Shown here: positions 21,301 to 64,000 of the stretch, in pieces
Layout of the letters: every line of letters starts with the position of its first letter
Numbering within the stretch: the stretch's first letter is position 1
Origin: Camelus ferus
Taxonomy: Eukaryota
Assembly: GCF_009834535.1 (NCBI RefSeq)
Contig: NC_045696.1
Span: 61,630,001 to 61,694,000, forward strand
Direction of reading: 5' to 3'
Length of the DNA: 64,000 nucleotides
Position numbers and translations under genes: made by a program
The notes under the pieces: model-generated
Database searches by the model: none
The model's input: only the letters and a program-made list of their open reading frames with translations
Told to the model about the DNA's origin: nothing

Positions 21301-22569
21301 AATCCAATATATACTTTAGAAAGCTGCCCATGGCCGCTGGGTGGAATCTATATTGGAGGTAGGGAGCCCAGGTTAAGGAAGCTACTAAAATGATCCAGGC
21401 CTGCATTGATAAGGTCTAGACTGAGGGCAGTGGCAGCAAGGATGAAGAGTAGGTTAGGATTCAAGAAACATTTCTGAGTTAGAGTCCGCAGGAATAGGTA
21501 ACCAATTCCATAGGAGGGGTGGAGTCTGAGAGAGCTGGACTCCCCTGATGGAGGCATGCCAGAAATAGTGACAGCCAAACAGGGCGAGAAACCAGCTAGG
21601 CCAAAGGATGAGTTCAGTTTAGGACACATTGTGCTTTGGCCACTCTGGGACATTGACCAACAGAGAGTTTAAAATATTTCTGGATCCCTTCTCTCCTAGG
21701 AGAGAATGTTGGAGCTAGAAATTACAATTTGGGACTAATCAACATATGGGTAGACACAAAAGGCATGGGGGTAGAAAATGTGCATACTATGAGAAGAAAA
21801 AAGCCCAAAAGACAACCTTGGTTTGTGATAATTTGACTTTTACTTGGTTTTTTCATTGGTGGTCTCATTATTACCATTACAAATGAATATTTTAGGGAGC
21901 AGAGACAATTTACTGGATGTTTGGGGCAGGAAGGACTTGTTCCTGTTCTCTTAGGATGCACATGCCAGTGATAATAATGCAATAGAGAATCACAAATCAT
22001 CAGGCTACTAGAGCTGCGAGCCAGCCCTCCAGGTCACTTCAGCTCTGCAGATCGGTTGGGAAAGAGCAGAACAGGAGATCCTGTCTCTGATTCCCCTGCT
22101 GTGCTTGTTTGCATTACTCATTCCGCATGCAGCAGACACTGTAAATATTTTGCCTTCTCCACTAGATGGTAAGCTTTTTGAGAACAGGAGCTATGAGATA
22201 ATGCATAGGAAGCTCTTAGCGTAGGGGCTGGTACCCCTTGGATAGTGGCTACCATTAATTCAATTATTCTTTTGAATTCTTGGCAAGAGCTCGCAGGGAA
22301 TTTTCTACCCATCAGGTACAAAAAGTTCATCCATGCAGCCTACGCTCAAGAAGTACCTAGCAGGCTGACAGCCCTCCCCAAAGCAATTTCCATTTCTTTT
22401 TCTTTTTTTTATGATGTGCTGGACACATAAAAAGGGATTATTAGTAAAGACTAGCCGAATGGATGAGTCTTCCAGAAAATGGACTCTCTTTCAATCGGAA
22501 AACGTGTATTCTACCCAGTCCCACAAGCTTGACCCTTGGGCATAACCTTGAAGGAGAGTTTCTGGGTCA

Positions 22570-23200
22570 GAAAAGCTCGTAGGCAAGCGCCCCAAGCTCA
22601 CCACCCGCCTCAGAAATTCGAAGGCAAGAAAGCCCGGGGATCCTCGGTTAGCACTGCTGACCTCCTTCGCAGCTAACCCAGCAGGTAGTCCTGGGGCCAC
22701 CGCTTCCCGCCAGCCCGCCGCCCTCTCCCCGCCCCCTCGCCCCCCACCCGCGGCGGCAGTTCCCTCTAAGATGCCTGCTCTCTGTGAGTGCTGAGTCGCT
22801 GAGCAGCTCGTTCTCCATGTGACTTCAGTTTCCGTCAGTTCCTTCCGCAAGTGCTAAAATAATCTGATGCCCCAGAGAGAGCAGGCAGCCCAGCCCCGCG
22901 TTCGGCTGCTCTCGAGGAGGAGGAGGAGGCCGGAGCCCCGGGAGAGGATGCGCCCCGCGGAGCCGCCTGGGCCTGCGGGAGCCGTGAGTATTTCCTGCGG
23001 GGCGGCCTCCCCGCGCGGCGGCCGCGGCCCCTCCGGGGGCGGGCGGGCGGGCTCCGCGTGGTGGCGAGGTAGGAGGTCAGCGTCCGCGGCCCACTGCTCA
23101 GGGCTGACGGGGAAGTTGTGGGTGGCTGCGTCCAAGCTCCAACAATTCTGGGCTGGGTTTGGGGGCCACGGCTCCGGGTGGCGGTGGAAATACCTCCCTC
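22570..23200 (+). promoter_or_regulatory. CpG-island promoter of NRROS with GC boxes and ETS-type TTCC cores
   Basis: Sharp rise in GC and CpG content. CCGCCC/CCCCGCCCC boxes at about 22707-22750; cagtttcc and agttccttcc at about 22826-22848. Confidence 0.85.
22780..22983 (+). other. NRROS: NRROS 5' non-coding exon 1 (start approximate)
   Basis: Lies inside the only strong CpG island of the window and ends at donor GCC|GTGAGT (22984). Consistent with the known 3-exon NRROS structure with a long first intron. Confidence 0.75.
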
Positions 23201-24904
23201 TAGGAGCATGAAGAGCTGAAAAGGTCGCAAGGTGTAGTGGAAACGAGGGCTTCGGATTCAGACCTGGGTTTAATTCTGGCTCTGTGGGGAGAATTTCTGA
23301 GCCTCAGTTTCTTCATCTGTGAAATGGGAACAATAATGCCCCCTCCCTGGGCCGCTGACTGGAGATAGTGAGACTACTCTGTGAGCACTCAGCGTGCTGA
23401 CTTACGGATCTCCTTTCCTGTCCCACAACTTGGATTGAGGACCACAATTTCATAGATGAAGACACTGAGACTCGGTAACAGCAACGCATATTCATATGTA
23501 TCGTCCATGGGCAGGCGAGATCCAGGTGCTGGGGGTAGACCTGTGAAGACGACAGGCAAAGCCCCCTCCCCATAGAGAGTGTTTCCTTGGGAGATTCCCT
23601 AGGGTTCTGTTATACTTGGACCCACAGCCTAGAGACTAGATTTCAGGCCTCTCTGACCCCCTTGTCCAGGGCTCTTCTGTAGCCCTGGAAGCCTCTCCAT
23701 GTGGGCTGGATTCGGAGTGGGGTGGGGGGTGTTGTCCGGGTCTAGCATGCATCCCCCTGCACTCATGAGCTTACAGACTAAGGAGGCACCGAGCAGAGCC
23801 GGCTGCCTGCTGCTCTCAGAACAGGCTACCAGGCTTACTGCACCCCTGAGGAGAGGTGACCACGTGCCCAACTGTGGCTGGGACTCCAGGAGGCTGAGGC
23901 AGGGTGCTAAGAGTGGAGCCCCTGGATAGAGCTGATCCGGAGTGGCGCACTTCCAGGGGGAGTGAAGGGACCCCACCGGAGGTTTCACCCAGCAACGGAT
24001 ACAGCCTGTTAGGAGTCTAGACGGTAGAATCATTCAGAGTTTATACAGCTGACCTTCCGAAATCTCCCGTGCCCCTTCACCTATTGACTGTGCCGCACTG
24101 ACTCCTTCTGTGAATGCTGATGGTTTACTGGATTTTGTGGCCCTGAGATTTATTTTCTCACACACCCCATAGGTTTGTACATATATGTCTGAGAGTTCCT
24201 AGAGGGAATTTAGGATCATGGGCCAGAGGGTGGGGGAAAGCCCCACAAAACTCAGCTTCTGTCTTTAGATTAAATGAAAACCAAAACCTGTTTCACAAAG
24301 GAGGTGCTTTCATCTAATTCGTGCCTTCATGGGAACTTCATGAAAATCCATGTAAACCTGGTTCCGCAGAGTCCTTAAACCCATCATCCAAGAGCAGGCT
24401 CCTGGTATCTTTGTCCCAGTGCCTGTATTAGGAATGCATTGACCTGTCTGTCTCTGGTTTTCTTGATTCTTTTGGAAGAGTGATGCTAGTACTGATTATA
24501 ACCTGCGTTCTGGCTGCAGTGTGCATCTCCACATCACAAAGTGTAAGCTAGACGCTTGGATGGACAACTAAATGTTCCTCACATCATGTTCAGATCCACA
24601 CAATAACCGCATACATTAGGGGAGGGTGGGGTTTCACCCATGACTGAAAAACATTATCTTTCTTAGGATATGCTTGTGTGCTCAGTGATGCTCACCAATG
24701 TATCTGCACATCAGTGACAAATGTTTTGCTTTATTCTACTCATTTCCCTTCAAACTATTCTTCTCAACCTCATCATCAAACAAACATCATGTGTTCAATA
24801 TGTGGGGATTCCTGGTCTAGATTAGGTGATGATCTCTGAAAGCTCAGAGAAGTGAGGAGAGGGCAAAGGGACATTGATACTTGGATCTTATCAAAGAAGC
24901 TTCA

Positions 24905-40176: not shown

Positions 40177-40284
40177 ATGGAGTTATTGCCCCTCTGGCTC
40201 TGCCTGGGTTTTCACTTCTTGATGGTGGAATGGAGGAACCGAAGTGGAAGGGTCACAGCAGCTTCCCAAGGGGGCTGCAAGTTG
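40177..40284 (+). CDS. NRROS: NRROS/LRRC33 first coding exon (gene exon 2, 40164-40284): signal peptide and start of the LRR N-cap, 36 codons
   Basis: Pyrimidine tract and CAG acceptor at 40161-40163; strong Kozak context gagATGg at 40177. Translates MELLPLWLCLGFHFLMVEWRNRSGRVTAASQGGCKL, matching the NRROS N-terminus. Phase-0 donor TTG|GTGAGT at 40285. Confidence 0.96.
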
Positions 40285-43200
40285 GTGAGTTTTCCTGGGA
40301 ATTCCCAGTTGTCTGTCACACCTGTCCTGACGAGGCTGGGTCCATTTGGAAAGTTGATGGATTGTCAACCAAAGAGGGGAGGGAATGAATGTCTGGATCA
40401 CTCTGTACCCACTTAGCATGATGCCATGTGCAACTTGCTCTTTGATCAAAAGAGATGATGCCTGGGAAAGGCCCTGCCCCACCTGTTTCATACCTGCTAA
40501 AGATAGATGACCCCAGAGATGGGCTGAGGCCAGCTACCTGGAACAAGAACACCTTGTTAAGTATCTGGCTGATGGAGCTCCACTAATGGTCTTGGAATCT
40601 CTGGGTGCGGAATATTAAGGTTGGAAAAGCCCTCCCTCAGAGTCTGTGTGTGAGCCGATAGCAAATGCTTACCCAGCTGTTCTGAAGGGCACACTGTCCA
40701 TGCTGCACCACAGAGCAACATCCCTGAGCTCACTCAGGCCTGTGACCATCCAGGGAGAGACACCTGAGTTTTACCGTTCACCCTCACCAGGGCTTCAGCC
40801 CATATGTGGAAGCAGACTTGGCTCATAACAACTGAACATTCTGTCAAAATTTTCTCCTTTATCTATAGCTCAGTGGCATCAAAAGTCTGCTGAGAAACAC
40901 ACATTTAATGACTGTTCCTTGAGTCCTATTAGATACTAGACACTGGGAAGACAAATTGGATGTCAGGGTCAATACTTACATTCAAAAATGTGTTCTTAAG
41001 GCTGATGAATCTTAAAAACCCAGGTGATCATGGTTCTTAACCACTTTTAGTAACCTCTAACTGCCATGCTAAGTAGACTCCAATGTGGGGTAGAGGGTGT
41101 ACAGTATAAACCAGATCAACTTTAAACCCCAGCCCCACCACCTACTAGCTGGTGACATTGGACCAGTCTGTGCCTCAATTTCCTCGTCTGTAAAATATGT
41201 AGGTAATAATAGTACCAACCAATAATACCATAACACTGGGCTTTTATGATGATACAGTGAGTTAATGTAGGTAAAGCACTCAGGACAGGGCCTTGTATGC
41301 AGTAAGTGCTGTGTGTTTTATCCGTTGTTATTATTGTTGCTAGTCTCTGCTACACAGACTTCTATTATTCATTCACAGAGGCAATGAAAGGTTAACTTCA
41401 CAGTGGCTAATTCAGGAGTCACCAGGCAGAGGAAGAGGAGGGAGTAAAGCTGGAGTACTTTGGCATCTTTAGAGGTTCAGGCTAGACTCCCTGCCTGATC
41501 CTCTGCAGCCCGATGGGCAGGAGTAGGGCCTTGGCTACCAGTGAGATCAGAGCAGATTTCCTGTGCTCTTTTGAACTGAGGGTTGAGAGTTTGAAGGTCC
41601 AGGTACCCTCCAAAGCCCCCCTTGAATCAGTCATGCGGTGTTATCATGAAGTGGATGTGGTAAGCTTTCTCGGGCCCTGACGGCCATATGGTCTTTCTGC
41701 AGTACTTCAGTGGGGCTGCAGGAATTGCAGAGATGTGTCCCCTCCTACCCTCAACTGCAGCAACTCTGGTGAAAAAGGGTTTTATGTAGCTTGAGGAAAG
41801 CCCCTAACCACAACATTGTCCAGAGAGTCCCTGCCGGGGGAAGACCAACACTTACTCAAGTAAGGATATACATCTTGTTCCTGCATGGGTAGATTCAGTT
41901 TTGTAAAGATATCAGTCCATCCCCAGATTACTCCATGATTGTAATAGGATCCCAATCAAAACACCAAAGATTTTTCTGAGGGGGTAAGAGGAGGTCTAGA
42001 AGGAGCTAGACAAATTCATTCTAACATTCATCTGTAAATTAGAAATAACTCAAATGCTCAACAATGGGAGATTAATTAATTAGAGCATGCTAATAATCAT
42101 TATAGCTAACATTTAGTAAGCATTTACGTGGCAGATTCTATGTTAAGTGTCTTACATAAACAATCACACTGAATCCTCAAAAGAAAACCTGTGAGAAAAT
42201 TACAAGTATAACTTCCATTTTACAGGTGCAGTAATGAAGGTCGCTACAGGTTAGGTACCAGTCCAAGGTCACCCATTTGATAGAAAGCAGAATCAAGATA
42301 GGCTGACCCTAGAGATCTTGCTCTTAACCACTCTGCTGTTCATGCAATGAACTAACATACAGTTGCTAAAAAGAATGTGACCAAATTTAATTTTATTGAC
42401 AAGTCAGTATGTCTATCACATGTTATTAATGGGGAATGGGGAAGAGTAGATTACTGAACAGTTTGTAGAGTGCAATCTGATTTAAAAAAAATTTTAAGGT
42501 AGATAACAGGAAAGAGTCCAGAAGAGATATAACAAAACGATAGCATTTCTTTGAAGGAGAGGCTGAGGTTACCGAATAGTTTAATTTTCTGTATTTCGAT
42601 AATGTATCAATTTTTAATTATGAGAAGATTTATTTCAATAATCAGATAAAGAACTGGGGGTTCCAAGAGGTTAATTTTTTGCCCAGAGTCCAAAGCTAAT
42701 AAGTTGCAGGCTTGAGTCTGTCATCTCTCCAAAGCTGTACTTCTTCCTCTCTCTCTCAGGATTTTCTCCCCTGTCCCACTACTCCATTTGCCCCCTGGGA
42801 TTGGGCCCACAATTTTAGGCAAACACTGACCTTGTCCTGCTGAGCAGTCTGTGGAAAGGTATGCCATTGGCTCTTCTGTCTTATCACTTAAAACCCTTTT
42901 CCTGGACACCAAAGGAATATCAGGTGGCTGGTTGTTTTTGCCAATCTTGTAAAAACTGGGCTGAGTTAAAATATCCTGAGGCTTATTTGATTTCTGCAGT
43001 GAGACCAGACCCATCCTTCCTGCCTCCTTACACCACACAATCGTAGCAGAATGGCATTCAGGAAAAGCACTGAATTGGGCAATAAGAGCTCTGGGCTCCG
43101 GTCCCAGCTCTGTCATTGGCTCTTCACTTGTCTTCTCTAGACCTCACTTTACTTCTCTGTAAAATTCAGGGTAGTAATGAGCGATCAGGTCCTTTCGAGC

Positions 43201-43773: not shown

Positions 43774-45744
43774 CTGGATGGAGTCGCTGACTGTCGAGGG
43801 CAGAACCTTGCCTCAGTGCCCAGCAATCTCCCGCCCTACTCCCAGACGCTCATCCTGGATGCCAACCCTCTCAAGACCCTGTGGAACCGCTCCCTGCAGC
43901 GTTACCCTCTCCTGGAGAGCCTCAGTTTTCACAGCTGCCACCTGGAGCACATCAGCCGCGCCGCCTTCCAGGAGCAGGTGCACCTGCGCAGCCTAGCGCT
44001 GCCCGACAACTCCCTCTCGGAGAGCTACCAGGAGGCCGCAGCTGCTCTCCGCGGCCCGCGGGCTCTGCGGAGGCTGGACTTGTCGGGGAACTCCCTGACA
44101 GAAGACATGGTGGCCCTCATGCTCCAGAACCTCTCTTCTCTGGAGTCTGTGTCCCTGGCAAGGAACACCATCATGAGGCTTGACGACTCCGTGTTTGAGG
44201 GCCTGGGGCGCCTCAGGGAGCTGGATCTGCAGAGGAACTACATCTTTGAGATTGAGGGTGGTGCTTTCGACAGCTTGACGGAGCTGAGGCACCTCAACCT
44301 GGCCTATAATAACCTCCCTTGCATTGTGGACTTCGGTCTCACACAGCTCCAGTTCCTCAACGTCAGCTACAATGCCCTGGAGTGGTTCCTGGCATCGGGG
44401 GGAGAGGCTGCCTTTGAGCTGGAGACGCTGGACCTCTCTCATAATCAGCTGCTGTTTTTCCCCCTCCTGCCCCAGTGCGGCAAGCTGCACACCCTCCTGC
44501 TGCGGGACAACAACATGGGCTTCTACAGGGACCTGTACAACACCTCGTCGAGGCAGGAGATGGTGGCCCAGTTCCTCCTTGTGGACGGCAACGTGACCAA
44601 CATCACCACCGTCAGCCTCTGGGAAGAGTTTGCTTCCAGTAACCTCTCAGATCTCCGCTTCCTGGATATGAGCCAGAACCAGTTCCAGTACCTGCCTGAG
44701 GGCTTCCTAAAGAAAATGCCTTCCCTCTCCCACCTGAACCTCAACCAGAATTGCCTGATGACGCTCCACATTCGGGAGCATGAGCCGCCAGGAGCACTCA
44801 CAGAGCTGGACCTGAGCCAGAACCAGCTGTCGGAGCTACACTTGGCTCCGGGGCTCCCCGGCTGCCTGAGGAGCCTCCGGTCCTTCAATCTGAGCTCCAA
44901 CCAGCTCCTGGGTGTCCCCACAGGCCTTTTTGCTGATGCCAGTAACCTCACTACAATTGACATGAGCCACAATCAGATCTCACTTTGTCCCCAGCCGGCG
45001 GGCTTAGACCCCGGGGGCGGCCCTGCCTGTGTGGATTTCAGAAACATGGCATCTTTGAGGAGCCTGTCCCTGGAGGGCTGTGGGCTGGGGGCACTACAAG
45101 ACTGCTCATTCCAGGGGACCGCCCTCACCCACCTAGACCTGTCTGGCAACTGGAGGGTTCTGAACGGGAGCATCGCTCCTCTCTGGGACACTGCCCCCAC
45201 GTTACAGGTCCTGTCTCTCAGGGATGTGGGCCTCGGTTCCAGCCTCACAGAGTTGGACTTCTCTGGGTTTGGGAGTCTGAGGGACTTGGATCTGTCGGGA
45301 AATGCCTTGACCAGTTTCCCAACGTTGCGGGGCAGCCTGGCCCTGCAGACCCTGGATCTCCGCAGAAACTTGCTCACAGCCCTTCCGCAGAGGGCTGTGT
45401 CTGAGCAGCTCACAAGAAGTCTGCGGACTGTCTACCTCAGTCAGAATCCTTATGACTGCTGTGGGGTGGAGGGCTGGGCGGCCCTGCAGCGCCTGCACAC
45501 TGTCGCCGACTCAGCCATGGTCACTTGCAACCTCTCCTCCAGGGTCATTCACCTGACAGAGCTGCCTGGGGGCATTCCTCAGGACTGTAAGTGGGAGCGG
45601 GTGGACATGGGCCTGCTGTACCTTGTGCTCATTCTTCCTAGCTGCCTCACCCTGCTGGTGGCCTGCACCATCATCTTCCTCACTTTCAGGAAGCCTCTGC
45701 TTCAGGTAATCAAGAGCCGCTGCCACTGGTCCTCCGTATACTGA
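43774..45744 (+). CDS. NRROS: NRROS/LRRC33 (TGF-beta1 anchor protein) last coding exon, 656 codons plus stop; spliced protein is 692 aa
   Basis: TAG acceptor at 43771-43773. The exon opens in phase 0 ([20 protein letters not shown]), in frame with the 642-aa ORF. Many LxxLxLSxN leucine-rich repeats, LRRCT motif NPYDCC, TM helix [25 protein letters not shown] and tail [10 protein letters not shown], all typical of NRROS. Confidence 0.98.
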
Positions 45745-49165: not shown

Positions 49166-50853
49166 GTGAGTTGGTTGTTTATTCAGTAATACTGAGCCAG
49201 AGAAATCCTGGTATTTGTATCAGGGCACCACAGATGGCTAAGAATGCAGCCAGAGATATACAGGCAAATCCCCCGGAGATGGTTGTCCCTCTGATTCACT
49301 GTGGGCAGACATGAGGAAGAGGCTGGACGTGAATAAGATGGCACACCTCATCTCACTAGCAATGGTATATTTAAGTGTAACCCAAGTTGGAGAGGGAGAA
49401 GAGTCCTGCCTTGGAGACTTTCTTTAAGAGTGTGAGTATTGTGATGGCATGGGGCCAAAGGAAACAGACAAGGGGTTGGGAAAAAGTGTTACAAAGAAAA
49501 GAAAAAGAAAAATACTCCTCACTAATCAGTCTTGTCTTCTATTCCATCCTCATCAACAATCACCAAGCACTTATTTTGTGCTAAGTGCTTTATATGGAAT
49601 ATTTCACTTAATTTGGGAAAACCGTAGGCTGAGAGCAGTTCAGATTCGCCCAAGGTCACAGAGAACTGTGGTAAAGACGTGACCATTAGGCTGAAGAAGA
49701 GAAAGCAGCTTCAGCAACTTGATTATCTTTATCAAGTCTACCCAACCGTCAACCTGTAGCAATCTATAGTGGTTACTGAACAGCACATGTTTGCTGATTA
49801 AATGGTAAATATGGAAAGGTTCATATGGGGCACAGGTGAGCAAGTCCAGAGTAGCTGAATGTCACCCAGGCTGTTCTGAAAGCAGTGGCACAGTTTGGTG
49901 ATAGCTTGGAGGTAATCTACAACAGAGGACTCACACTCAATTTCTTCTTCCTTCAGCCATGCAGCAGCTTCCTGCTCAACAGTGAAGACAAAAGGCTGGT
50001 GCAAAAGGATTCTGATTTTCATCATGATTTGAAAGGCTTATTGTGGGTGAGGAAACTGATCAGGGAAACTCTGTTGCCCAGGGAAGACACTGTTTCTGTG
50101 ATAACTAAGTTTTTCAGATGGAGAGCCCAACTTTTAAAGATGTATTTTCTCTGGAAAGAAAAATTAGGATAAACCTAATAGACCAGTAGACCTAGTACTC
50201 AGAGACTTATGAGTTGTTAACATACTGACCCATTCACTCCAGGATGTCTGAGAGCTCAGGCAGCTCTTGGTTTCAGCGTTAGCTACCAGGAATGGTGGAC
50301 GAGGGCCAGCTGAGCCCGGGGAGAGTCGCAACGTGCAGACCTCCACACTCCAGATGGAGTCTCCTTCAAATTACACTTCCCAGTGCTCCTTAAAAACTGT
50401 CTTTAGTGATGACTCTCAAGAGCTGCTTGTGTCTTTCACTCACATCCTAGACACGGCTCTTGTTTTCACTGTCCCATCTTCAGGGGAGAGCAATGACTGT
50501 GCTCAGCTGCTTTTTGGCTGTTCTTGGTCCTATGGTACTTAGTCCTCAGGCACTTAGTCTTGCACTCCCACCACCTCTAGAACCGTCCATATGGAAAATG
50601 TGGAAAACTAGATCCCAAACTTCAGTTATATTTAACTCTTACCATTGGATACACTAAGTTGGTAAAAAAAAGCATTCCCCCTCTCTCTTGCTTATTTCAA
50701 GGGTGTTTGGCTTATAAAGGGCAGCATAACAAACCATTTTCCATGTAAGAACATGCATAGCAACACAGATATGTACTGAGTCTGAATCACAATGATTCAT
50801 GCTTAGTTAACTTTAGACAACAGTATCTCACGTTTCTGAAACTGAGAGAAGTT

Positions 50854-52028
50854 TCTTGCAGAGTCTCAAAATCGACAAGCGGTATTAGCAGAGAACAGTT
50901 TGAAGATGGTCTTTCCTGCGGAGCTCAAAAAATCATGATCAGAGTGGTGGGCATGGGGAAGGTACATGGCCCAACCAAATTTTAATGGGGATAAAATTGG
51001 CTTGAACACAGAAGTGGTCTCAATAGCACAACCCCGAAGGAGCCTTTGAGGCTCCTAGGGGGAAGTAAGCCACGATGGGAGGCACGGGGAGTGGGGAGGA
51101 GGGTCATGCTTTCTGGAGGGTGGGTGTGTTTCTTTCTTTTCCGGCTACTGTTATCAATGTGGTGAGCACATCCCTTCAGCTGAATGCCCTGGAGAGGAAG
51201 CCCAGGGCTTCCTGTTGTCTCACCAGTGCTGCAAAATGCAAGTTAGAAATAAAGAAGAGGGGGAAAAGAGGGGGAAAGTGGGAAGCTCCTCCAGGTAGGT
51301 CAGGGATGCCAGCCTCCAGGAGAAAACCCAGCTCATGTTTTCCTGGAGATGTCATGGTGAAGGCGCGTCCCAGATGTCTGCTGTTTCTCAAATAACTGAG
51401 GAGCCAGAAAATAATCTCTCTAGAAAAAGGACATTTTTGAGAAACAGCAGAATAGACAGCAGAGTTGATCTTGAAAGGAAGATTAAGGAAATACATATAG
51501 ATACTGCCAAAGAAATCTACTTTTCCCTTGCTTAATGCCCTTAAAATTCTTCTGTTTGTGAGGCTCTACCCCAAAGTTTTGGAGTATTGGAAAGAGTCAT
51601 TTAAATATCAGGATCTGTTTTTATTTTGCAGCTATGAGCTCTAGCTATCTGTGAGATACTTCACGAGATTTAGCTGAAATAACATCCTGGCCCTCGGCGG
51701 AGGGCACACAGGTGGTGCCAAAAGATTGCCATATATTTACATATTTATTTGTGGCACCATAATCAGTATAAATACTTACATGTATTTATTTATATCACCC
51801 GTAAGTTACCACAATAAAATAACCTCCCCTCCCCTTGCCTTTTAGGGGCCAACTTTTTTCTTCTATTCTTCAAAAGGCCAATTTTATCCCCTTTGAAATT
51901 TGATTTGGCCATGAACCTTCCCCACATCCTCCTCTTAGAAAACATTTTTTGGAGATCTGTGGGCAAGGCTGTTTTCAAACTGCAATCTGCTAATGCCACC
52001 TTGCCTAAGATTTTGAGAATCTGCAAGA
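50854..52028. repeat. Imperfect long inverted repeat (arms 50854-51003 and 51874-52028)
   Basis: Arm 1 'tcttgcagagtctcaaaatc...ggggaaggtacatggcccaaccaaattttaatggggataaaattggc' aligns to the reverse complement of arm 2, 'tcttgcagattctcaaaatc...ggggaaggttcatggccaaatcaaatttcaaaggggataaaattggc'. Confidence 0.85.
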
Positions 52029-55000
52029 TTTTCAACCTTGACTTTCTTGAACTAGATTTCTTTAACAATATTATCTTCCTCTGTTGCCTGGGTTTCACAT
52101 CATAGTACATCCTTCCTTCGAAAGAGAGATAACAACAACAAAAATTCCACTTTGATCGTAACAGTTGATTAAAAAGGGAAACTCCCTCCAGTTTTCTAAC
52201 TTTTCAAAAATGCTATGCTTTCCCCTTGAAAGAAAAGTAAGTTTTGCATCCCCCCCTTCATTCCCTACGGTTTTCCTAATGGGCAAATGTTGACTGCCTG
52301 GTAAGCGGAGACTAAGGCAAAGAGGTAGACATGTTTGCTGCTAGCATCACCCTAGGGGATGCTACATCCAGCTGTGTTTCTAAAGATAATGTTTTTCTAC
52401 TCCACTCTTCTTTACCAGAAGTTCCAACAGTATTTAAGTTATCTTCTGAACCGATTTTCATGGAAGACTGTTAAGTATTCTGCAATATATGTCATAGCCT
52501 AGAGAAAAGACCTTGCCAATGTGTCAAGTAACCACCAAAAGTGCAGCAGGTCTGCAGAAGGAGGGTCTCAGCTCTGACAGCTGGCTCTGCCAGGGAGTGG
52601 GGAGCATTGTGACACAGACAGAATTAAGTTTTCGTTTCCCTTTTGGTTTTGAAATAAAAACTGTCATTAACTGCAAAATGGCTACAAATTCTACTAACGC
52701 ATTCATCAGAACAAATACAATGCAAGTGTTCATGATGCCTGTGAAGACTGTACAAATGTAACCTGGGAATTGGTAGTTTAAATGATCATGATATAAGAGA
52801 GATTTAATATTATGTGGATTGGGTAAATATGAAAATGTGATGCAGCATATGAGGCATGACAAATTGTTGAGCAAAATCAATCAATTTAATGGATCCAGAG
52901 AATGGATCTGTTTAATGGATCTAGAGAAAGTAATTGCCCAAGATAAGGCAAAGAGATCAAGGTCTTTACCTAAGAGCCAATTTCACATGAACTTCAATGC
53001 CATTTGGATATGTGTATGAGGATAGATAAAGAAATTACACATTTTAAAAAGGGGGTCCAAAAATGGGAAAAAATTAGATCTCATCATTCTGCAAATATTA
53101 AAGGAATAAAAAAAAGGCTTAGTAGAAGAGTAAAAATGCAAAATGTACAAAAGTATGAAATAGTTCAGTGGAAATATTGTCCATAGGGCAAATTAATTTT
53201 AGAAAAAAGGATTAAAAAGGGGAAGAAAGTGAAATATTTGAGCTTGAAAGACAATTGAATTTTGAGATGAAAGAATTGTTTGTGTAAAGAATGCGTTCAC
53301 AAACAAGAAATTGGTACTTACGAAGTCAGTCCCTGGAATATAATCCTGTGTTGTGAAGGGAATCAAAGTACAAAGTCTTTTTTAAATGTGCTTTATTTAC
53401 TTCAGCTGCTGATAATTTTACTGAGGTTTTCAAGGTGGGGAGATGTTCCTACAACTACTGAGCTTTCTCTGGGTTTTTTGGGTCTCTCACTTCCCATCCC
53501 ATTTCCCTCAGAAGGCAGAACATCTTTGTTGGTACTTTTTGAGTTTATTCAGACCAAGGGTGAAATCTTTTAACAATTGGATTTTTTTTTTCTTTTTGGT
53601 AGATGTTAACTTGAGTACTCTCCCCTTTTTGGTGTTTAAGATCTTGCAGACAGGTACAATTTGTTTCTCAGGTTTCAGAGGAAGATATTGCTGATACTTC
53701 TTTAATTACATGAGAAGATGAGCCTCTGGTGGCAGGCATGATTTCCGGTCAGGTCATCACTAAATTTATCATCCTTTTCCTTTCTGATTTATTTAACCTT
53801 TTTTCTCCCCAGTTTGCACCCACTCATCCCCCTTTGCCTTTTCTTTCATCTTTAGGTGCTTTTCTTGGATGTATTTTTGAGAGTTCATGACCAAATTTGA
53901 TTTCTTTTGGGGGGCTTAATTTTCCAGTGTTGATTTCTTTGCCCCATAAATGTAAGCCTCTGAATCTTTGGAAAATGTTGAACTTGCTGTTCATTTTTAT
54001 ATTTTGTTCATAGTTCTAATCACTGTATCATTTAGGGGACTGTGATCCTGTTGCATGGTAACCAAGATGGTGACTGCCATGGCTTGTTTGTTAAGACTTA
54101 ACTATTGCCTGAACTTTCATGTCTATGAGGTTTGTTCATTTTTAGAGGACAACTGAAGTTTGAGTTGCTAGCCCAAACTACGAGGTTCTCATATTACTAG
54201 GTTTCAATATTAAATTCTAGATTTTGCTTAATTTCTGGTGGTGGATGACAGTATTCAGCACCTCCTTTGAAATAACTGAGTTGAGCCTCTTTTGGAAGCT
54301 TGTATCAAACAAGGGAAGGTTGCTGATTGAATGGTCCTGCTCCTTTGAGTCCTCAATGGCTAACAATTTATATCTTTCATGGGACATCTTCTTTTTCCCT
54401 GTCCCAAGCTGCTGTTTTCCACATAGTTTTTTGTTTTATTTTGTCTTGTTTTACCAACCATTTGATGGTAAGTCTTTCCACCGTCAGTTCCTGAGGTCTG
54501 ATAGGTAGGAAGGTAGGTCTGGGTGTAGAATCTACTCTGAGGTTACCCAAGGTAGAAGAGCAGCACTGGAGTAGCAGAAAGAGCCTTAAGCTGGGAGGTT
54601 ATACTTGACTCCTAACTCGATGTGCACACTTAAGTCCACACATTTCCCTCCTAGACTTCACCTTCCCCACCTAGAAAATAGGGAGGTTGAGCTAGATAAT
54701 CTCTTCTTCTGCAAGTCCAACATTCCATCATTCTCCAGTGCTTTCTGTTCAGCTTTCTGGGTGTAGTAGGCAAGCATTATAAAGATTTATAAATAAAAGG
54801 TTAATTAAAGATAATATTATAATGAATGGGGGTCAGCCTAGTTAAGAAATGAAACAATACGGAGGTGCCTGGTTTACTGATGGCCCAAAGGTGATGATGA
54901 AGCAGCCTTACCTTCTGTTGCCCACTTTTATCTTACTGTGTGTAACTGTGAGCTTCCAGATTTGTGAGAACACTTACATGGATTTTGTTTGTTTGTTTGT

Positions 55001-57163
55001 TTGTTTGTTGTCTGCAAAGGTTTTAGCCAACTCATATCCATTCCTGGTCCAGGAACCCTCTGAGACTCGTATGTCTCAGATTTACCCTTCTCACCAGGGT
55101 CCCAGGATGCACCTAAGGGATACTGGTCAGTAACCTTCCTCTTCATGCCCCTAAAATGGCCTGGAATTCCCCTCTGCCACAAACCAACTGACAGTAACTG
55201 AGGAGGAGAGGGCAATAGGAAGGTTAGAAGTTACTGAGCATGACTAGGGACTGCTCTGCAGGAGAACTGCCCACGGGTTTCTTGGTATCAGTCAACAGGA
55301 GCTTAAAAAAACAAAGCAGCTTCATCAGCCCACCATACATCCTCAAATCTGATGTCCTAATCAGGGAATTACAGCTCAGTGTCTTCCCTATGATTTCAAC
55401 ATCATAGATCTTTCAGGTTTGTTAATGTTCAGAATATTCAGTCATTTGCTTGGGGCTTATTTCAAGCCCAGATGCACAGAAATACCTTACTTTTTGTTCC
55501 ATGCCCTTCAGTGTTCTATAATGAGGGAACAGGGCACAGAGCCCTAGCCCTAAGCCAGTCATTCATTCTGCAAATATTTTTTGAGCCCCTGCCACGTGCC
55601 AGGCACTTCTTAGCCCTGGGAATACAGATAAAGCTATTTTTCTTCTCACTGGTAGCACTTATCATTACTTTTCTTCACTTCCATTTTTCAGAGCCTCTAC
55701 TGTTCTTCACTCTCCTCAGTATCCTTGAGAGTTGGTACTGAACCACTTTGGTTAAAATACACCTGAGGTACTCCTTGCTATATCTGGGCACTTACCACAC
55801 CAGTGTAGCCCATGTGCCATATAAGCTCTTTTCTGTGTCTTCAGTTTTCTGTTTAATGTGCTCCTGAGAGAGCAGTTTCGGTTCCTGGGTCAACCATGCA
55901 TTTGCCACATAATACAAATCTACACACTGCCTCTTTCTATTCCTGATCCCAAAGCTGGGTGACACAGAACATCAATCCATCACAGATCCAGTCATCCAAA
56001 AGACACTTTAGTCCAGGCTCTGAGCCTCAGAATCTCAAAGAAACTAGAAATCAAGTAAAGTAATACTAGCTTGAGCCCTAGTGCCAGTCAACTGCTTGTT
56101 TACATTCAAATCCATACTTTAACCTTACCTGCTTTGCTCTGTATCCATCCCTACTAATACAAAGAAATGATTAGATAAGTAAATAAGTGGAGAAGAGACA
56201 AGTACAGAAGAATTTCAAATAATGCATGTAGACACTTCCCACTCTAGGAGGTGAACTTAGTCTCCACCCATCACCCTTGTTTTTGAATTTGAGCTTGTAC
56301 TTAGTGACTGGCTCCCAAAGAATAGTGTACAGAGGGTGGAAAATGGCAGCTTTACTGTGGCGAGACCTAGCAGATATTATTCTAACCAAGTGATCAAAGT
56401 CAACATCACCAGGGGTGTCATGTGATATTATGCACGCCTGATACGATGTGATGAGATGGACACATTGCCTTGGGGTATTCTTTCCAAAAATTCATCATCT
56501 CAATCTGATCATAAGAAAAACAGAAGACAAAACCAATTTGAGGGACTTTCTACAACATAGTTGAGCAGTACTCCTCAAAACTGTCAAGGTCACATAAAGC
56601 TACAAGGATGTATTGTACAACATGGGGTATATAGCAAACATTGTACAATAACTATAAGTGGAGTATAACCTTTAAAAGTTGTGAATCACTAGGTGGTATA
56701 CCTGTAAGTTATATAATATTGTACATCAACTATATTTCATTTTAAAAAGACTATCAGGGTCATGAAAAACAAGGAAAGACTAAGAAACTAAACACAATGC
56801 AGTATCCTAGATTACTGGAACAAAAGTCATTAATTAATTTAAAAATCTAATAAAATATGAGTCTGGAGTTTAGCTAATAGTAATGTGCCAATATTGGTTT
56901 CTTAGTTTTGACCAGAGGGAACAAACTGGGTGAGAGGGGTAAGGGAACTTGATGTATTAGCTTTGTAAATCTTCTGTAAATCTAACAGTATTCCAAATAA
57001 AAGTTTATTTTATAAAATTTCTAGCAAGACTGATCAAGAGGAAAAAATACAAATTATCTATATCAGGAATGAAAATAAGAATATTGCTGCAGATCTTATA
57101 ACATTAAAAAGATAATACAATGGTATAACTATCTTTATGCAACAAATTTAACAATTTAGATGA

Positions 57164-57299
57164 GGGGGAAGATATAGCTCAATGGTAGAACATATGCTTA
57201 GCATCCATGAGGTCCTGGGTTCAATCCCCAGTATCTCTATTAAATAAATAAAAATAAACCTAATTGCTCCCCCTAAAAAAACCACACAAACAAAAAATA
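57164..57299 (+). mobile_element. tRNA-derived SINE (camelid vic-1-like)
   Basis: 'gggggaagatatagctcaatggtagaac...gtcctgggttcaatcccc' (A and B boxes); TSD tttagatga on both sides. Confidence 0.87.
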
Positions 57300-58299
57300 T
57301 TTTAGATGAAATTAGCAAATTTCTTGAAATACACAAGTAAGTAAAACTGATAGAAGAAAAAAAAATCTGAATAGTTCTACAAACTGAATATGTAATTTAA
57401 ATCTTCCCACAAAGAAGAGTGAAAATCAAGCCTTGTATTGGAGATTTTCACAATATGTATAGTCAACAAAGGACTTATTATCAGACTACATAAAGAATTC
57501 CTTAAAAAAAAAAAAAGAATTTCTACAAATCAATAAGGAAAAGACAAAGACAAGCCTAATTTTTTTTAAAAAAGTGGACAAAAGATACAAACAAGATTTC
57601 ACAAAAGAGGCTATCAAATGGGCAAATAAACAATGAAAAGATGATCAAATACAGAAAATGCAATTAAATTCACAAACATTTACTAATAACTATTCACTGC
57701 AATGGCTCAAATTTAAAACACAGACAATACCAATTATGGATGAATATATGGACCAACTGAACTCTATCCATTGATGGTGAGAATGTACATTCATGCAACT
57801 TTGGGACATTGCAGGATAGTATGTGCTAAAGCTAACTGTATGCCTGTCCTACAACCCAACAATCCCATTCCTAGTATACATCCAAGAAAAGTGAGTCCAC
57901 CAAAATACATGTGCAAGAACATTTCTAGCAGGTTTATTCATAATAACCAAGCTCTGGCAACAGCCTCAGAGGGCTGGATAACCAAATTGTGATACATTCA
58001 TATAATGGAGTACTGCACAGCAGTATGAAACAGTGAATTACTGCTACATGCCCCAGTGAATTAATCTCACTGCCCTTTGTCAAGCAAAGAAACCGGGTGC
58101 CAAAGAGTACATGCTGTTTAATATTCAAGACAAAATGGAAACAATCTATGGTAGTAGAAGTAGTTGTAAGCATTAGGGTGTTGGGTATTGACAAGGAAGG
58201 GGCATAAGGAAGACTTCTGGGGTGCTGGAGAAGTACTATATCTCCATCCTGCTATTACATGGATGTATATATATGTAAATAGTCATTGGATTGAACATT

Positions 58300-58442
58300 T
58301 TATTTTTATTTTATTTTAAAAAAAAATTTTTATCGGGGGGATTAGGTTTATTTATTTATTTTTAGAGGAGGCACTAGGATTGAACCCAGGACCTTGTATA
58401 TGCTGAACATGCACTTTACCACTTGAGCTATGCCTTCCCCTC
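58300..58442 (-). mobile_element. tRNA-derived SINE (camelid vic-1-like)
   Basis: 'ggattgaacccaggacc...acttgagctatgccttcccc'. Confidence 0.82.
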
Positions 58443-60230
58443 CAAACTGCACATTTTAAATTAATGCACTTTGCTACCCTTCTATAAAAGAACTATGGAA
58501 CAACAGTAGTAGCCAATCTAGACAATAATAACAATGTAGACAACAGATAATGAAAGTCTGGATCAAAGCAGTGAATGTGGAGATGGATGCCAAGGCAGGG
58601 GTGTTGTAATTTCTGAGTTGACTCTTCAGGACTTCCTGAGACTCAACAGACAGCTCCCTACAAAGACAGAAAAGTGTAAAAATAGCCACCCCATAACAAC
58701 TAAATATATTTCTCTTTTCAGTTTTATCTTGTGCTTTAGTGGAGACTGTTGCTTTAAAAATTTGATTTAAGCGTTTTCTCAAAAAGTGAAATTCCAAAGT
58801 GTTACAGCCTAGCTTAGAAAACTTGCCAAGGGGCTTATTAATTAGCACACTGTGCTACTGCCTGTGAGAGAGAAAAAGAAAGAAAGAAAGAAAAAAGAGC
58901 TGTGAGAAACAGGCCCTGAATAACAGAAAGAAGGAAAGATATTTCCTCCAACAAGCAGGGAAGAAGGGATGTAGGTGACAACCCTTCCTCCCTGTGCTTT
59001 TCCTTCATGCAAGGAGAGGCCGGTATGTTTGCTGAGGGGATTTTTCTCTATAACAGTGTGTAAACAAAATACTGTGAACCAACCTAAGGCAACTGGGCCA
59101 TTGATAATTATTAGGGTCTACCTGGTAGTTAACAGATGATGACAGTAGGTCTCCTGACCCACAACCTTGCCGCTACAATGAAAGCAAGTCTCGGCCCAAG
59201 TCTGGCCACCCACATAATGTTTATTACCAGGCAGGACTAGAAACCAGTCTTCAAACTTGTTCTGTGGACTTGATGAAGCCCCACTTCTCCATCCTTTTAA
59301 GTGCTCCATTTCACTTGAAATGAATAAGACCTGAGTCTCCTGTGAGGATTCAGCTACCATCTTGTCAAACTCAAAGGGCCAAGACTCCTCTGAATCAGTG
59401 ACTGGATTACAGGACCATTTAGGAGACAAGCCCAGATGCCATTCTACAGGGCTTGGGCCACCAACCTGTGGCCTTGACCGTGCAACGGCAGGGATGCTCT
59501 TCAATATTTCCAGAGAATCTATACCTCTTGGGACACTACTAATGTCACCAGGGAAACATCTCTAATATCCATTATGCTAGTTAACCCAGCCTCTGGTGTG
59601 AACTGGACCAGGAATATGGGAGGTGTCTGATGTCTGCTTAGGACATCTGGCTGCCATCCCAAGCTTGTAGGTCCATCCAGTCCACCTCACATGCATTTAT
59701 AGCACTGTGATTCTGCTGAATCTGGTAAAGTAAATTACAGACAACAGAACAGAAGCTGTCACAGAAGTGATTTCTTAACGGAGGGACATAAAAGTCAGGG
59801 TGGTGGAAAGGAACAAGGCTCTCTCTTTGACGTTAGGCCCAGGGATGAAAGAAGGATTATGAATCACAAAAATTATGAATAAGTGAGAGAAAATAGGAAA
59901 AAAGAAGCAGTTACAGTAACATTGTTTAAAGTTTTCTTAATTTATTGCCCTTCATTTAAAAACCAAAGAGGGGGGTGGTGTAAACATTGAAAAAAAAACT
60001 GGAAATCATAGCCACAAACTCAGGAGAGCTCTAAAAGAGCCTACAAGATGGATTACCAAAACCAGTATTCAAATCTACCTCTGCCGCTCACATGATGCTA
60101 TGTTGCCTACTTTTTACTTCTCTCTGCTTAGTTTCTTAATTTCTGTAATAGGAACAGTAATTCTTCTATGAGGAAATCCTCTGCAAGAAAACCCAAACTC
60201 AGCCGATTCAAAGATCTGACATTGGCACAC

Positions 60231-60249
60231 TCCTGCCCCCTGGTGGCGA
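60231..60249 (-). promoter_or_regulatory. CTCF binding motif
   Basis: The reverse strand reads TCGCCACCAGGGGGCAGGA, a near-consensus CTCF core (CCASYAGRKGGC). Confidence 0.75.
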
Positions 60250-63200
60250 TTTTAAGAACTCTGTGGGCTGCAGTAAGGGCAAAAATGTGGAAACTGTAAA
60301 ACAAAAATCATGAGATGTCTTCCTTGTAATGCACACTAGCTTTTTAATCGCTAATTCCTCCTCAATGCTTTTTCCCTCCTCCTACTATCAGCAGTGCAAA
60401 CATACAGTGCAGGAAATTTCAGGAGTCATCCAAAGGAATTATAGTATATTTATTTTCATTTGTATTTTTTCTTCTCCTCCAGATAACATGGATCTGTGGA
60501 GCATACTGTGTCTTTTATGTCATTAGAATTGCTTTTTTTAGGAGATGTAACCACAGAGTGAAAGCTGTGGGAGCTATATAAAATCTAGCTGGAGGTTATT
60601 TAAATATTGAAACTTGTAGCACTAGCAGGTAGAGAGAATATGAAAAGAATTCAAGATTGAATGAACCAGTAAATAGATTAACTGGATGTGATTAAGAAGT
60701 GAAGTAATTGATTTGTGGAACTTGACCCATCCTAATTAGGTGATAAAATGGAAAGAATCTCAAATAATTAGTAGGACTTGTAATTGGACTCAAGGGAATA
60801 GGATTATTAATCCAACCCCATTGGTAGAACAAATTCTTTTTTTTTAAGTAGGTATTTTCCTGTCTATGGAATGTGTATCTACTTTTACTTTTTTTATAAG
60901 CAACTTTACTGTGGTGTGATTCTTGAACAGTAAACTACACAAATTTCAGATGTACAGTTTGATGAATTTTGATGGATGTATGCACCTGTGAAACCACCAC
61001 CACAATCAAGATGCCTAACATTTCCATCACTCTCCAGGAGGCGCAGATTTCAAGCTCCCAGTTTGTCCCTTCCACCCGCTTTACCCCTGGTGACCATAAA
61101 TTTGTCCTCTATGTCTACCCTTACTTCAACCTCACCGACTCCCCCGTGTAAATCTCTCTAAATAAATATACTTTTACTCAAAAAAAAATATATATATATA
61201 TCAGGTGTTTTCCCACTTTTCTTGACTGTTGAATGTGAGTTGGAGAGAGAAGCAAAGGAAGAAGTGAGAGAAATAGGAGGAAGATCGTAGAAGTGGGGGT
61301 GAGTGGGACCCAAGTCCTGGCAGATCGAGTCTTGCCCTGCTCCTCAGCTGGCTTGGTGCCAGCCCCCAGGCCCTTCCCCCAACTTGTGACCTTGGTTCCC
61401 TCACATTGCCTCTTGGTTGACCAGGGCTTCTGCTCTGTCATCTCACCTGGACGTCCCTCAGTGGGTCCTGGCCAGGACCCCATTGCTACCCTTAACATCT
61501 GGATCTTTCATCTGCTACACTCTCTTCTACTGATGCTGACTCGAGCCTAGTCTGAGTAAGGTTATGATGTGGCTGAGGCATTTGGCTGTGATTCAAGAGT
61601 CCTGGAAGGAGTCTTGGTTTCCAGCTCCAACCTGGAAATTAACCAAGCCACAATCTCCTGGAGCCTTGGTTTCCTTATCTGTAAAACAGGTATATCTATC
61701 TTCCCTAGCTCTGTGAAGGATCGAATGTAAGTGCTTATAAAAGGTAAGGCTTTTATACCATGGTAAAGCAGTGTCGTTAATAGCTAGTTGATGATAACCG
61801 GCCACCTCCAGCCTTCCCCATGAGAACCTCAGCCTGCTTTCAGGCTGTCTGCCTCCTGCTACTCTTTTCCCTTTCCCTATCAACATCTGCTCTTTGTATA
61901 CGATTGCTATTTACTTTTACACCTTAATAGTATTAAATCAGAGATTTAGACAATTAGAGCCAAGATAGTTATACCTTGTCCAGAGGTATTTGCATATTAA
62001 ACCTTATCTCTGAGTGGTAAAAATGTTTCGCTCTTGTTTAAGAAATGTTAACCAACAATTTGGGGTAGGAGAGAAAAGCAGACTTTCCTTGTGCTTGGAA
62101 ATCACTTAATTCATACCAGAATTATCCCATCTGAGCTGGAATTTGAAGAGAATCATAGGATCAGTGTTTTTATTTTATTTTATTTTTTTGCTCCAAAATA
62201 TTTTATTAAAAGTTTTATATAAAAAAGATAGATATGTATCACACTGAATAATGTGCATTGAAAGCATGTGTATGGGTGTATTCCCTAATTTCTCTATAAA
62301 ATTAACCAGCCATAATGGAGTTAGAGTACATATATTCATTTTTGGGAGGGAATCCTTCAGAGTACAAAATGTAGTGTTTTTTAAGTGCAAAAAAAGCTTA
62401 TAATAAGATAGACTTTTAAAATTACAAATAAAAATCTGTACATCAAGGATATTTTTCAGGCCTTTCTGTGTGCATAGCACTGTGTAGAAAGAGAAGAGGA
62501 CCTGCCCAGAGAGGACCCATCCCATCAGGTGTTACAGGTCTTGCAGGACCATCTTCTCTTTCCTCAAGGGAAATGTGTCGATCAGGTTGAAAAGGGCCAC
62601 AGGCGTCACCAGGGAGACATAGCGCTCCTTGTTTTAGAGACTTGAATTCCATTTTTTTCTATGCATATGGTTTGTTTTTTAATTGGGGTCATATTACATT
62701 TATGATTAACATCTGATGGACCAACATGGTCCACTGAAAGACATAATTGTTAGGTGGTTTGATGCACAAATTCCAGAGCCAGGTGACTTCAGTTCAAATC
62801 CTAGCTCTCCCATGTGTTATCTGTGTGTCCTTGGGGAGGTTATTAAACTGCTCTGTGCCTCAGTTTCCTTATCTACAAAATAGGCTTATTGGGAGGGTTA
62901 AATAAGTGAATAGGTCGAAAACACTTAGAACAGTGTTCAACACTTAGTAAGGATTAGCTAGTATTTATTATAATTACATGTTAAAAGTTCGAGCCATCCA
63001 GAAATTTATTTTTAAAAATTTAAGAAAATCTCACTTAAACTCCTCCCACTTTAACTTCACTCCCCTCTCCACAGGCAATGATTAACAGTTAACTTGTGAC
63101 AATCCTTCAAGAGTTTTTATTGATTTCTTTTAATGATGGGAATATAAAATGCTCACTATCTGGCAACTTGTTTTTCTCACTTAACTATGCAGCTAAGAGG

Positions 63201-64000
63201 TATTTCCAGGTCACTAGTCTACCTCCTTGTTTTGATGGGCTTTACAATATGCCACGACATGAACACGCCACAATTTACTTATTGATGGATATTTGGGTTG
63301 TTTCCAATTCTCCACTATTATGTTCACTTTTTACTCGCTCTTTTCTTTTTGTCATTCAAAATCATCACACTGAAAATTTAGCAGGGCTTCCTCATTGCAC
63401 CACCATAGCTCATTTCCTATTGAGCAAACTTCTTCCTCAGGTCAGCTCTTGCCACACGCTGCAGGGGTGGGGGCTTTTTCCACGGAAAGAAGAAGTGGAA
63501 TTATCTATCCTAGGCCTTAGGAGCAAACATGCTCAGTCCCTTGACAGTGATGCCCACGCTGCCTGGCCCACATAGCACTGCTGCCCCTGGGGCTCCCGAA
63601 CAGCCCAATAACCTGAAACAACAAAATCAGCATCACTTTCCCTCCAGTGTGGTTGATGGCACTTGGTAAGTTTTAATAGATCTGGCAACAGACAGGATGC
63701 CTTCCCACAACACAGAAGAGATGCGAACCCTTTTTTGAAGCTTTCCCAATTGCCTCGGCCTATACTAATACTTCCCTTTTCCGAATTTCTTCAGCAAGAA
63801 TGCCTTCTAAGTGCACAACACCTTGTGAGGGTGAACCCCTGGGCCACAGAACCATGAGTTGTGGGAAGGTGTGAAATAGAAGACCATCACATACCCAAAT
63901 CTCATAGAAATCATGCTATTGTAAGAGGAGAGGCCCAGACGCAGAGACACTATGGAATATATTGGAGTTAATATGAACAAAAGGAAAGGGTAGATTTGAT

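Follow-up and report, generated by a model that had tools for sequence, protein, structure and literature searches.

The region downstream of NRROS in the 64,000-nt stretch of Camelus ferus DNA analysed here (the window) appears to be a mosaic whose base layer would be old, mostly single-copy DNA. Part of this layer may be what remains of a protein gene on the minus strand that had introns and at least one large exon rich in K, S, E and N (54497-53322); its product would have been a largely disordered protein. We give this reading, an old relic (at least 15% decayed) with later insertions on top, a probability of about 0.45. The gene would have lost its function long ago and then drifted neutrally in place, with substitutions creating stops, small indels breaking the frame, splice sites eroding to background strength, and a processed retrocopy, SINEs and L1 pieces being inserted; the relic would make no protein today. 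An intron-containing gene decayed in place had been proposed in the initial annotation in a form with 12 exons, which finds no support as written; a weaker form, with one or a few blocks being old coding exons, stands at roughly even odds. These odds apply to 54497-53322 and perhaps to 59721-59228 and 50150-49690.

Genomic context

The candidate lies tail-to-tail with NRROS (LRRC33), its plus-strand neighbour, as the initial annotation had recognized. The large last coding exon of NRROS corresponds to an intact ORF of 656 aa at 43774..45744 (+), which matches PDB 7y1r_E (LRRC33) with 1118.5 bits, versus 257 bits for LRRC32. On the other side, an examination of 80 kb beyond the window located CEP19 and PIGX 13 kb or more past the window end, the last exon of CEP19 lying on the minus strand at extended position 77119-77496 and a PIGX exon further out. 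Given this placement of CEP19, the candidate region occupies around half of the 31-kb gap between NRROS and CEP19. It had also been noted that no annotated coding gene is known directly downstream of human NRROS before CEP19/PIGX, which agrees with the 3q29 gene table of PMC13326166, where NRROS, PIGX and CEP19 are listed with none in between. No description of a gene or pseudogene in the NRROS-CEP19 interval was found in the literature searched; the passages of PMC4976360 and PMC3566564 that match “cep19” concern CEP192, not CEP19.

Candidate coding blocks

The best candidate for a decayed large exon is a block of 1176 nt at 53322..54497 (-), with a 7.1-bit acceptor on one side and a GTAAGT donor scoring 3.8 bits on the other. 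It is single copy according to DNA and protein searches of the camel genome itself. The block is A-rich (AT skew, p=0.013), has a weak 3-base periodicity (p=0.035) and a low observed/expected ratio of TpA (0.59 vs 0.77, p=0.015). Considering skew, TpA and periodicity jointly, it ranks fourth among 1266 overlapping windows, the top three being NRROS, a rank that overstates the evidence because the measures were applied after the block was chosen: all coding measures concern blocks already picked at first reading as protein-like. The purine fraction is 0.57 before the donor and 0.34 after it, the steepest fall being 54 nt from the donor. The block has 17-26 stops per frame, and its disablement count is ordinary.

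The second candidate, at 59228..59721 (-), is a single-copy block of 494 nt with two open frames meeting at ~59549. In-frame matches to it, with 58-75% identity, came from four clusters of unnamed ORFs belonging to other genomes. One of these clusters, P0009 (with four members in addition), reads through the frameshift of the window at ~59549 and thereby joins the two frames into ~150 codons, a length still within chance, since the window has frames as long as 187 aa in other places. In addition, the window shares an identical stretch of 13 residues with P0002 and P0006/P0011. None of the composition tests (skew/periodicity, TpA, disablement) was significant for this block. A weak match of ~55% identity between 59173-59375 and contig C2 was treated as chance.

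The third, a candidate last exon at 49690..50150 (-) opened by an acceptor of 10.8 bits, contains a stop-free frame of 79 codons (50037-49801) and shows periodicity (p=0.017). Word-seeded, ESM Atlas and own-genome protein searches found no homologue of it, and its single-sequence fold model (pLDDT 40.8) had no Foldseek match.

The other blocks are doubtful as exons. The one at 50230..50576 (-) has an acceptor of -0.6 bits and a donor of 5.6 bits, and its disablements exceed those of controls (p=0.97). The intron-like gap of 79 nt that follows (50229-50151) failed the preset rule when tested as a mini-intron; a branch-like motif was seen in it by eye, only ~14 nt from the AG. The block at 52030..52498 (-, acceptor 10.0 bits) enters, on its downstream side, an arm of an inverted duplication, and no coding signal was found in it by the periodicity, TpA and disablement tests. 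The block at 54978..55197 (-, acceptor 11.4 bits, donor 8.9 bits at 54977) has one stop-free frame (openness p=0.105). The block at 55796..56043 (-), with a faint SRCR-like motif, is closed by a donor at 55795 (9.6 bits) that was absent from the initial list. The short block at 58560..58657 (-, acceptor 10.5 bits) presumably resembles the 3' part of an L2 repeat, and no second copy of it was found in 269 kb. Finally, the doubtful 5' exons opened at 63806 and 63612 (63420..63916, -; acceptors 3.4 and 10.1 bits) gave no Pfam or PDB match and no coding signal in the periodicity and disablement tests. The W[IV]CDGL[ML]F resemblance of 55990 to 63897 amounts to a single match of 8 residues and 24 bits, which is chance level.

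Splice-like motifs and exon borders

The 12 acceptors and five donors initially listed on the minus strand are all present (17 of 17), exactly placed or one base off. According to approximate matrices, the acceptors score from -2.1 to 11.4 bits, five of the 12 reaching at least 10 bits and another five remaining below 4 bits (63806, 62658, 60573, 56043 and 50576), while the donors score from 3.6 to 12.2 bits. The true acceptors of NRROS and CEP19 obtain 6.5-11.4 bits with the same matrices. Across the region, acceptors of at least 9 bits are as dense on the minus strand (21) as on the plus strand (20), which corresponds to 14.6 and 13.9 per 10 kb versus 10-20 in controls, and donors of at least 8 bits number 11 on the minus strand vs 22 on the plus strand, inside the range of the control regions. 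A test for a retained exon-intron structure was negative: splice signals are not above background and the minus strand is not favoured. Of the 17 sites on the list, two are part of an insertion or lie next to one (62658 a retrocopy, 56129 a repeat), and blocks 59721 and 58657 have open frames that do not connect in phase.

Most of the proposed exon borders are at chance level, and the splice-like motifs chosen here by eye occur at background density. The 12-exon model finds no support in the form given, with its motifs at this density, one “exon” being a retrocopy, its best-scoring donor following a repeat, and no colinear protein homologue found.

Coding signal over all segments

Stops and frameshifts, both part of the initial description, are seen in the minus-strand reading. 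Over 10 segments, stop triplets have an ordinary density, the minus strand having 211 where 227 are expected and the plus strand 199 where 203 are. The minimal disablement path over nine segments is 33.5 vs 34.9+-3.8 (p=0.385), or 2.7 disablements per 100 codons, and non-coding DNA gives as many. In simulations on three real exons this measure saturates at ~15% decay, so the disablement count rules out a recent loss, not an old one.

The 3-base periodicity over 11 segments, some of whose borders were set in the follow-up and not at first reading, is 0.0051 vs 0.0011+-0.0024 (p=0.06). It stands out in 54497-53322 and 50150-49690 only and is absent in nine of the 11 segments; the combined value of 0.005 matches a simulated decay of 20-25%. 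The TpA ratio across segments is 0.59 vs 0.72+-0.05 (z -2.7), a signal that weakens when the best of two windows is picked (p=0.09) and vanishes with the best of three (p=0.23), mimicking the choice made at first reading. A codon-content scanner was dropped, as it barely detected the intact NRROS and CEP19. The impression that the frames read like protein thus keeps a weak coding-like composition on its side (periodicity and TpA), while stop and disablement counts lend it nothing.

Homology searches

No intact homologue was found in three word-seeded protein searches, one HMMER scan, Pfam, PDB and the camel genome itself. The word-seeded search with the 111-aa frame of block 59721 yielded one match among 94 candidates, and those with blocks 56043 and 50150 yielded no candidates. 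Pfam scans of 21, 27 and 12 sequences returned the retrocopy and noise only, with no zinc finger in the candidate blocks and no transposon domain in the scanned sequences of the region. For blocks 52498, 55197 and 58657, the homology search consisted of Pfam only. Protein searches of the camel genome with three blocks found no paralogue, within their limited sensitivity: each retrieved itself, the next best having E>=0.23, and the match on contig C7 at E=0.23 is unrelated. Two stop-free frames had no useful match in the ESM Atlas, and none of ten window ORFs was present in an exact look-up. Scans of metagenome contigs gave three loci, none sharing DNA with the window, and scans of prokaryote contigs gave two, both bacterial by title.

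The HMMER scan, run on 1.84 billion representatives and queried with the read-through of 60572-59229, retrieved nine proteins. All of them are ORF calls without a name, 57-200 aa long, on contigs of Logan or ENA. Four lie in block 59721, with the identities given above, and five in the supposed intron (40-62%); conservation does not set the exons apart from the intron. Because unnamed ORFs from other genomes match, this DNA has counterparts elsewhere, presumably in mammals. The missing homologue is weak evidence, since only part of the region received a sensitive scan and protein searches are weak for distant, frameshifted queries.

The sole family lead derived from a tool is a match of block 56043-55796 to CD6, an SRCR protein, at E=0.021. 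The noise level is apparent from an unrelated block that matched immunoglobulin light chains at E=0.013. The block shares with SRCR proteins such as CD6 and CD163 a short W-D-x-E...E-A-V-C-R...C-G spacing, which is not significant. Using a profile built from the SRCR domains of the same genome, block 56043 came first in single frames with 7.1 bits over ~32 profile positions, although the idea had come from the same block. It had no Pfam (PF00530) or nhmmer match and was absent from the 132 genome matches. Its frameshift-aware score was 15.8 (rank 5 of 298), below the background maximum of 17.4, whereas seven of nine simulated SRCR domains decayed by 20% averaged 22-52. The SRCR lead was rejected on these results, although a very divergent domain of this kind may be present. 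Likenesses to LDLa, Tudor, PWI, USP and U1-zinc-finger domains seen by eye had no Pfam match, and Lrp13 was rejected as a family lead, its neighbour as described in PMC9935665 being rchy1.

Insertions and duplications

The “exon” opened at 62658 derives, as a processed copy truncated at its 5' end (62179..62632, -), from the last exon and 3' UTR of a gene with a DUF4174 domain on contig C37 (92% identity over 470 nt). The parental locus, C37:36870726-36871191, was assigned to DUF4174 by Pfam (E=1.8e-12), and we take this gene to be SRPX. The match falls inside one parental exon and stops just after AATAAA, continuing in the window, and not in the parent, as an A-rich stretch; this end after a polyadenylation signal followed by an A-rich tail identifies it as a retrocopy. 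It resembles processed pseudogenes in its match to the 3' end of the parent, its 5' truncation and its A-rich tail, and it is an insertion into the region and no part of the proposed gene.

An interspersed repeat block with L1-like pieces and tRNA-derived SINEs covers 56142..58480, and the best-scoring donor, 56129, lies just past its end. The stretch before this donor is a high-copy repeat, on which 35 of 40 scored matches land. The segment 59922..60539 (-), which covers most of the “exon” 60573-60406 plus a MIR, is found a second time on contig C2, with 74% identity and several gaps that break the frame. This copy has at its end an A-rich run close to where the window has an AATAAA; it adjoins an L1-like end and may represent a transduction or a DNA-level duplication. 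A motif near 60250 is presumably CTCF-like. Sequence comparison also revealed an inverted duplication at 50854..52028 with two arms of ~170 nt that are 75% alike, for which no further copy was found in the genome. In neither the C2 copy nor the inverted duplication did the differences show a codon-position bias. Profile searches placed MIRs at ~62947-62785, 61743-61638, 60173-60061 and, weakly, ~54700, none of them inside candidate exons, and the genome search misses such old MIRs. Rfam recognized one tRNA-like SINE.

The segments had been described as non-repeat. Most of them are single-copy DNA at the sensitivity of the searches. The description fails for the retrocopy at 62658 and the repeat before donor 56129, and most of 60573-60406 has the copy on C2.

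Alternative explanations

We consider it quite possible, if somewhat short of the preferred reading, that the interval is ordinary intergenic DNA, in which the “exons” are chance splice-like motifs selected for the purine-rich, stop-poor sequence after them, and the identifiable features are only the retrocopy, the repeats, the two duplications described above, both old, and a probable CTCF site. In its favour, the list for the 14.4 kb has 56 minus-strand acceptors of at least 7 bits and neither strand has an excess, the counts of stops and disablements are the ordinary ones given above, a frame of 147 aa is not special among the ORFs of the window, homologous ORF fragments are as frequent from the “intron” as from the “exon”, and the searches returned no intact homologue. 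However, block 54497-53322 stands out on three measures together, and a decay of 15% or more saturates most of the negative tests, so that an old relic is still compatible with them.

The coding-like blocks could also be relics of very old, low-copy transposons or retroelements and not of a host gene, 54497-53322 being an A-rich ORF remnant and 50854-52028 an element with long terminal inverted repeats. The ~170-nt arms look like element ends, most of the other windows with a strong A skew in ~180 kb look L1-like by eye, and old MIRs found with a profile escape the genome search. However, neither DNA nor protein search found a second copy, Pfam found no transposon domain, and the similarly A-skewed L1-like windows have TpA ratios of 0.71-0.95, well above that of the block, which makes this origin unlikely. 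Still less probable would be a long non-coding RNA transcribed from the minus strand and spliced at some of the strong acceptors and donors, whether its locus was never coding or reuses a dead gene. Five acceptors do reach 10 bits or more, and the A-rich end of the C2 copy near an AATAAA is what the end of a retroposed minus-strand RNA would presumably look like, but splice sites are not enriched, and this copy, which adjoins an L1-like end, may be due to transduction or duplication of DNA. Parts of 49600-56300 occur in 14 of 24 listed sequencing runs, one of which (X9, share 0.12, labelled reproductive system) is recorded as RNA; these records do not count as evidence of transcription.

Comparison with known systems

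In a more specific form of the old-relic reading, possible but doubtful, the gap between NRROS and CEP19 would hold a unitary pseudogene not described so far, whose ancestral vertebrate gene had ~1000 codons or more and coded for a largely disordered protein. This gene would have been lost early in placental mammals, with breaks that differ in position between lineages, and would still be intact in non-placental vertebrates. Losses of genes with no intact human or mouse copy escape reference-based screens. If true, the region orthologous to the human 3q29 deletion interval would contain an ancient gene loss so far unlisted, which would point to an uncharacterised gene to be found in marsupials or reptiles.

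There may be some likeness of motifs to Drosophila TEsup-2/CG7065 and TEsup-1/CG31510 and to fish look-alikes, namely in how Cys and His are spaced in block 56043, in a short helical stretch of block 50150 and in long low-complexity sequence between them. The boldest version of the reading, suggested by this motif likeness and very improbable, would make the lost gene a vertebrate relative of these TEsup/CG7065 zinc-finger Piwi cofactors. TEsup-2/CG7065 and TEsup-1/CG31510 combine a U1-like zinc finger with long unstructured regions (bioRxiv 10.64898/2025.12.16.694471); section 43 of that paper gives arthropod orthologues, with FUBP3 as the only human profile match, and the word “vertebrate” is absent from its main text. 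A member of this group would be recognized by the U1-like zinc finger together with the second and the proline-recognition domains that the group shares.

Unitary pseudogenes are genes that decayed in place, with no intact copy left in the genome. As the searches returned no intact orthologue and the exon borders are not above chance, features in which the region differs from this class, it is an unproven candidate of a familiar kind. It carries disabling stops and frameshifts, and searches of its own genome, of limited sensitivity, returned no intact paralogue. It is like unitary pseudogenes in its single-copy state and in its multiple segments with disabled frames at a fixed position between conserved genes.

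Splice motifs and SRCR matches

Minus-strand donor motifs missing from the initial annotation, which had proposed a decayed multi-exon gene on this strand (window 49640-63806), are found at window 55795, 55094, 54977 and 54911, with scores of 8.9-11.5 bits. The candidate exon opened by the acceptor at 56043 would end at donor 55795, and that opened at 55197 at donor 54977. For the SRCR family (PF00530), tried as a lead for the 56043 block, eight consecutive half-domain matches lie on another contig of the same genome (G000:C2:83683607-83716359), half of them with an internal stop, and possibly represent a decaying SRCR gene or matches overhanging into introns.

Duplicated and repeated segments

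Contig C2 also shares a duplicated segment of about 600 nt with the window (G000:C2:90476983-90477500 and window 59922-60539), at 74% identity. A retroposed or transduced piece would look much like the C2 copy, which adjoins a short L1-like 3' end and has an A-rich run at its own end. This copy carries a MIR and a CTCF-like motif; the window's counterpart of the motif, near 60250, is the stronger of the two. A processed copy of the last exon and 3' UTR of a DUF4174 gene, presumably SRPX, lies on the minus strand (window 62179-62632) with 92% identity to its parent (G000:C37:36870726-36871191); another copy of this gene, UTR-only, is present on contig C11 (G000:C11:62129672-62129929, 83% identity). 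Two inverted arms of ~170 nt each (window 50854-51003 and 51871-52028), 75% alike and ~870 nt apart, are either the remains of an old element with long TIRs or the product of an inverted duplication at this site; no further copy was found in the genome. A SINE-like repeat contains an Rfam tRNA match (window 57168-57239, plus strand, 44.9 bits).

Possible NRROS 5' end

On the plus strand, a short exon starting with ATG (window 40178-40285) resembles by eye the NRROS signal-peptide exon. A CpG island at window 22000-24000 may be the NRROS promoter.
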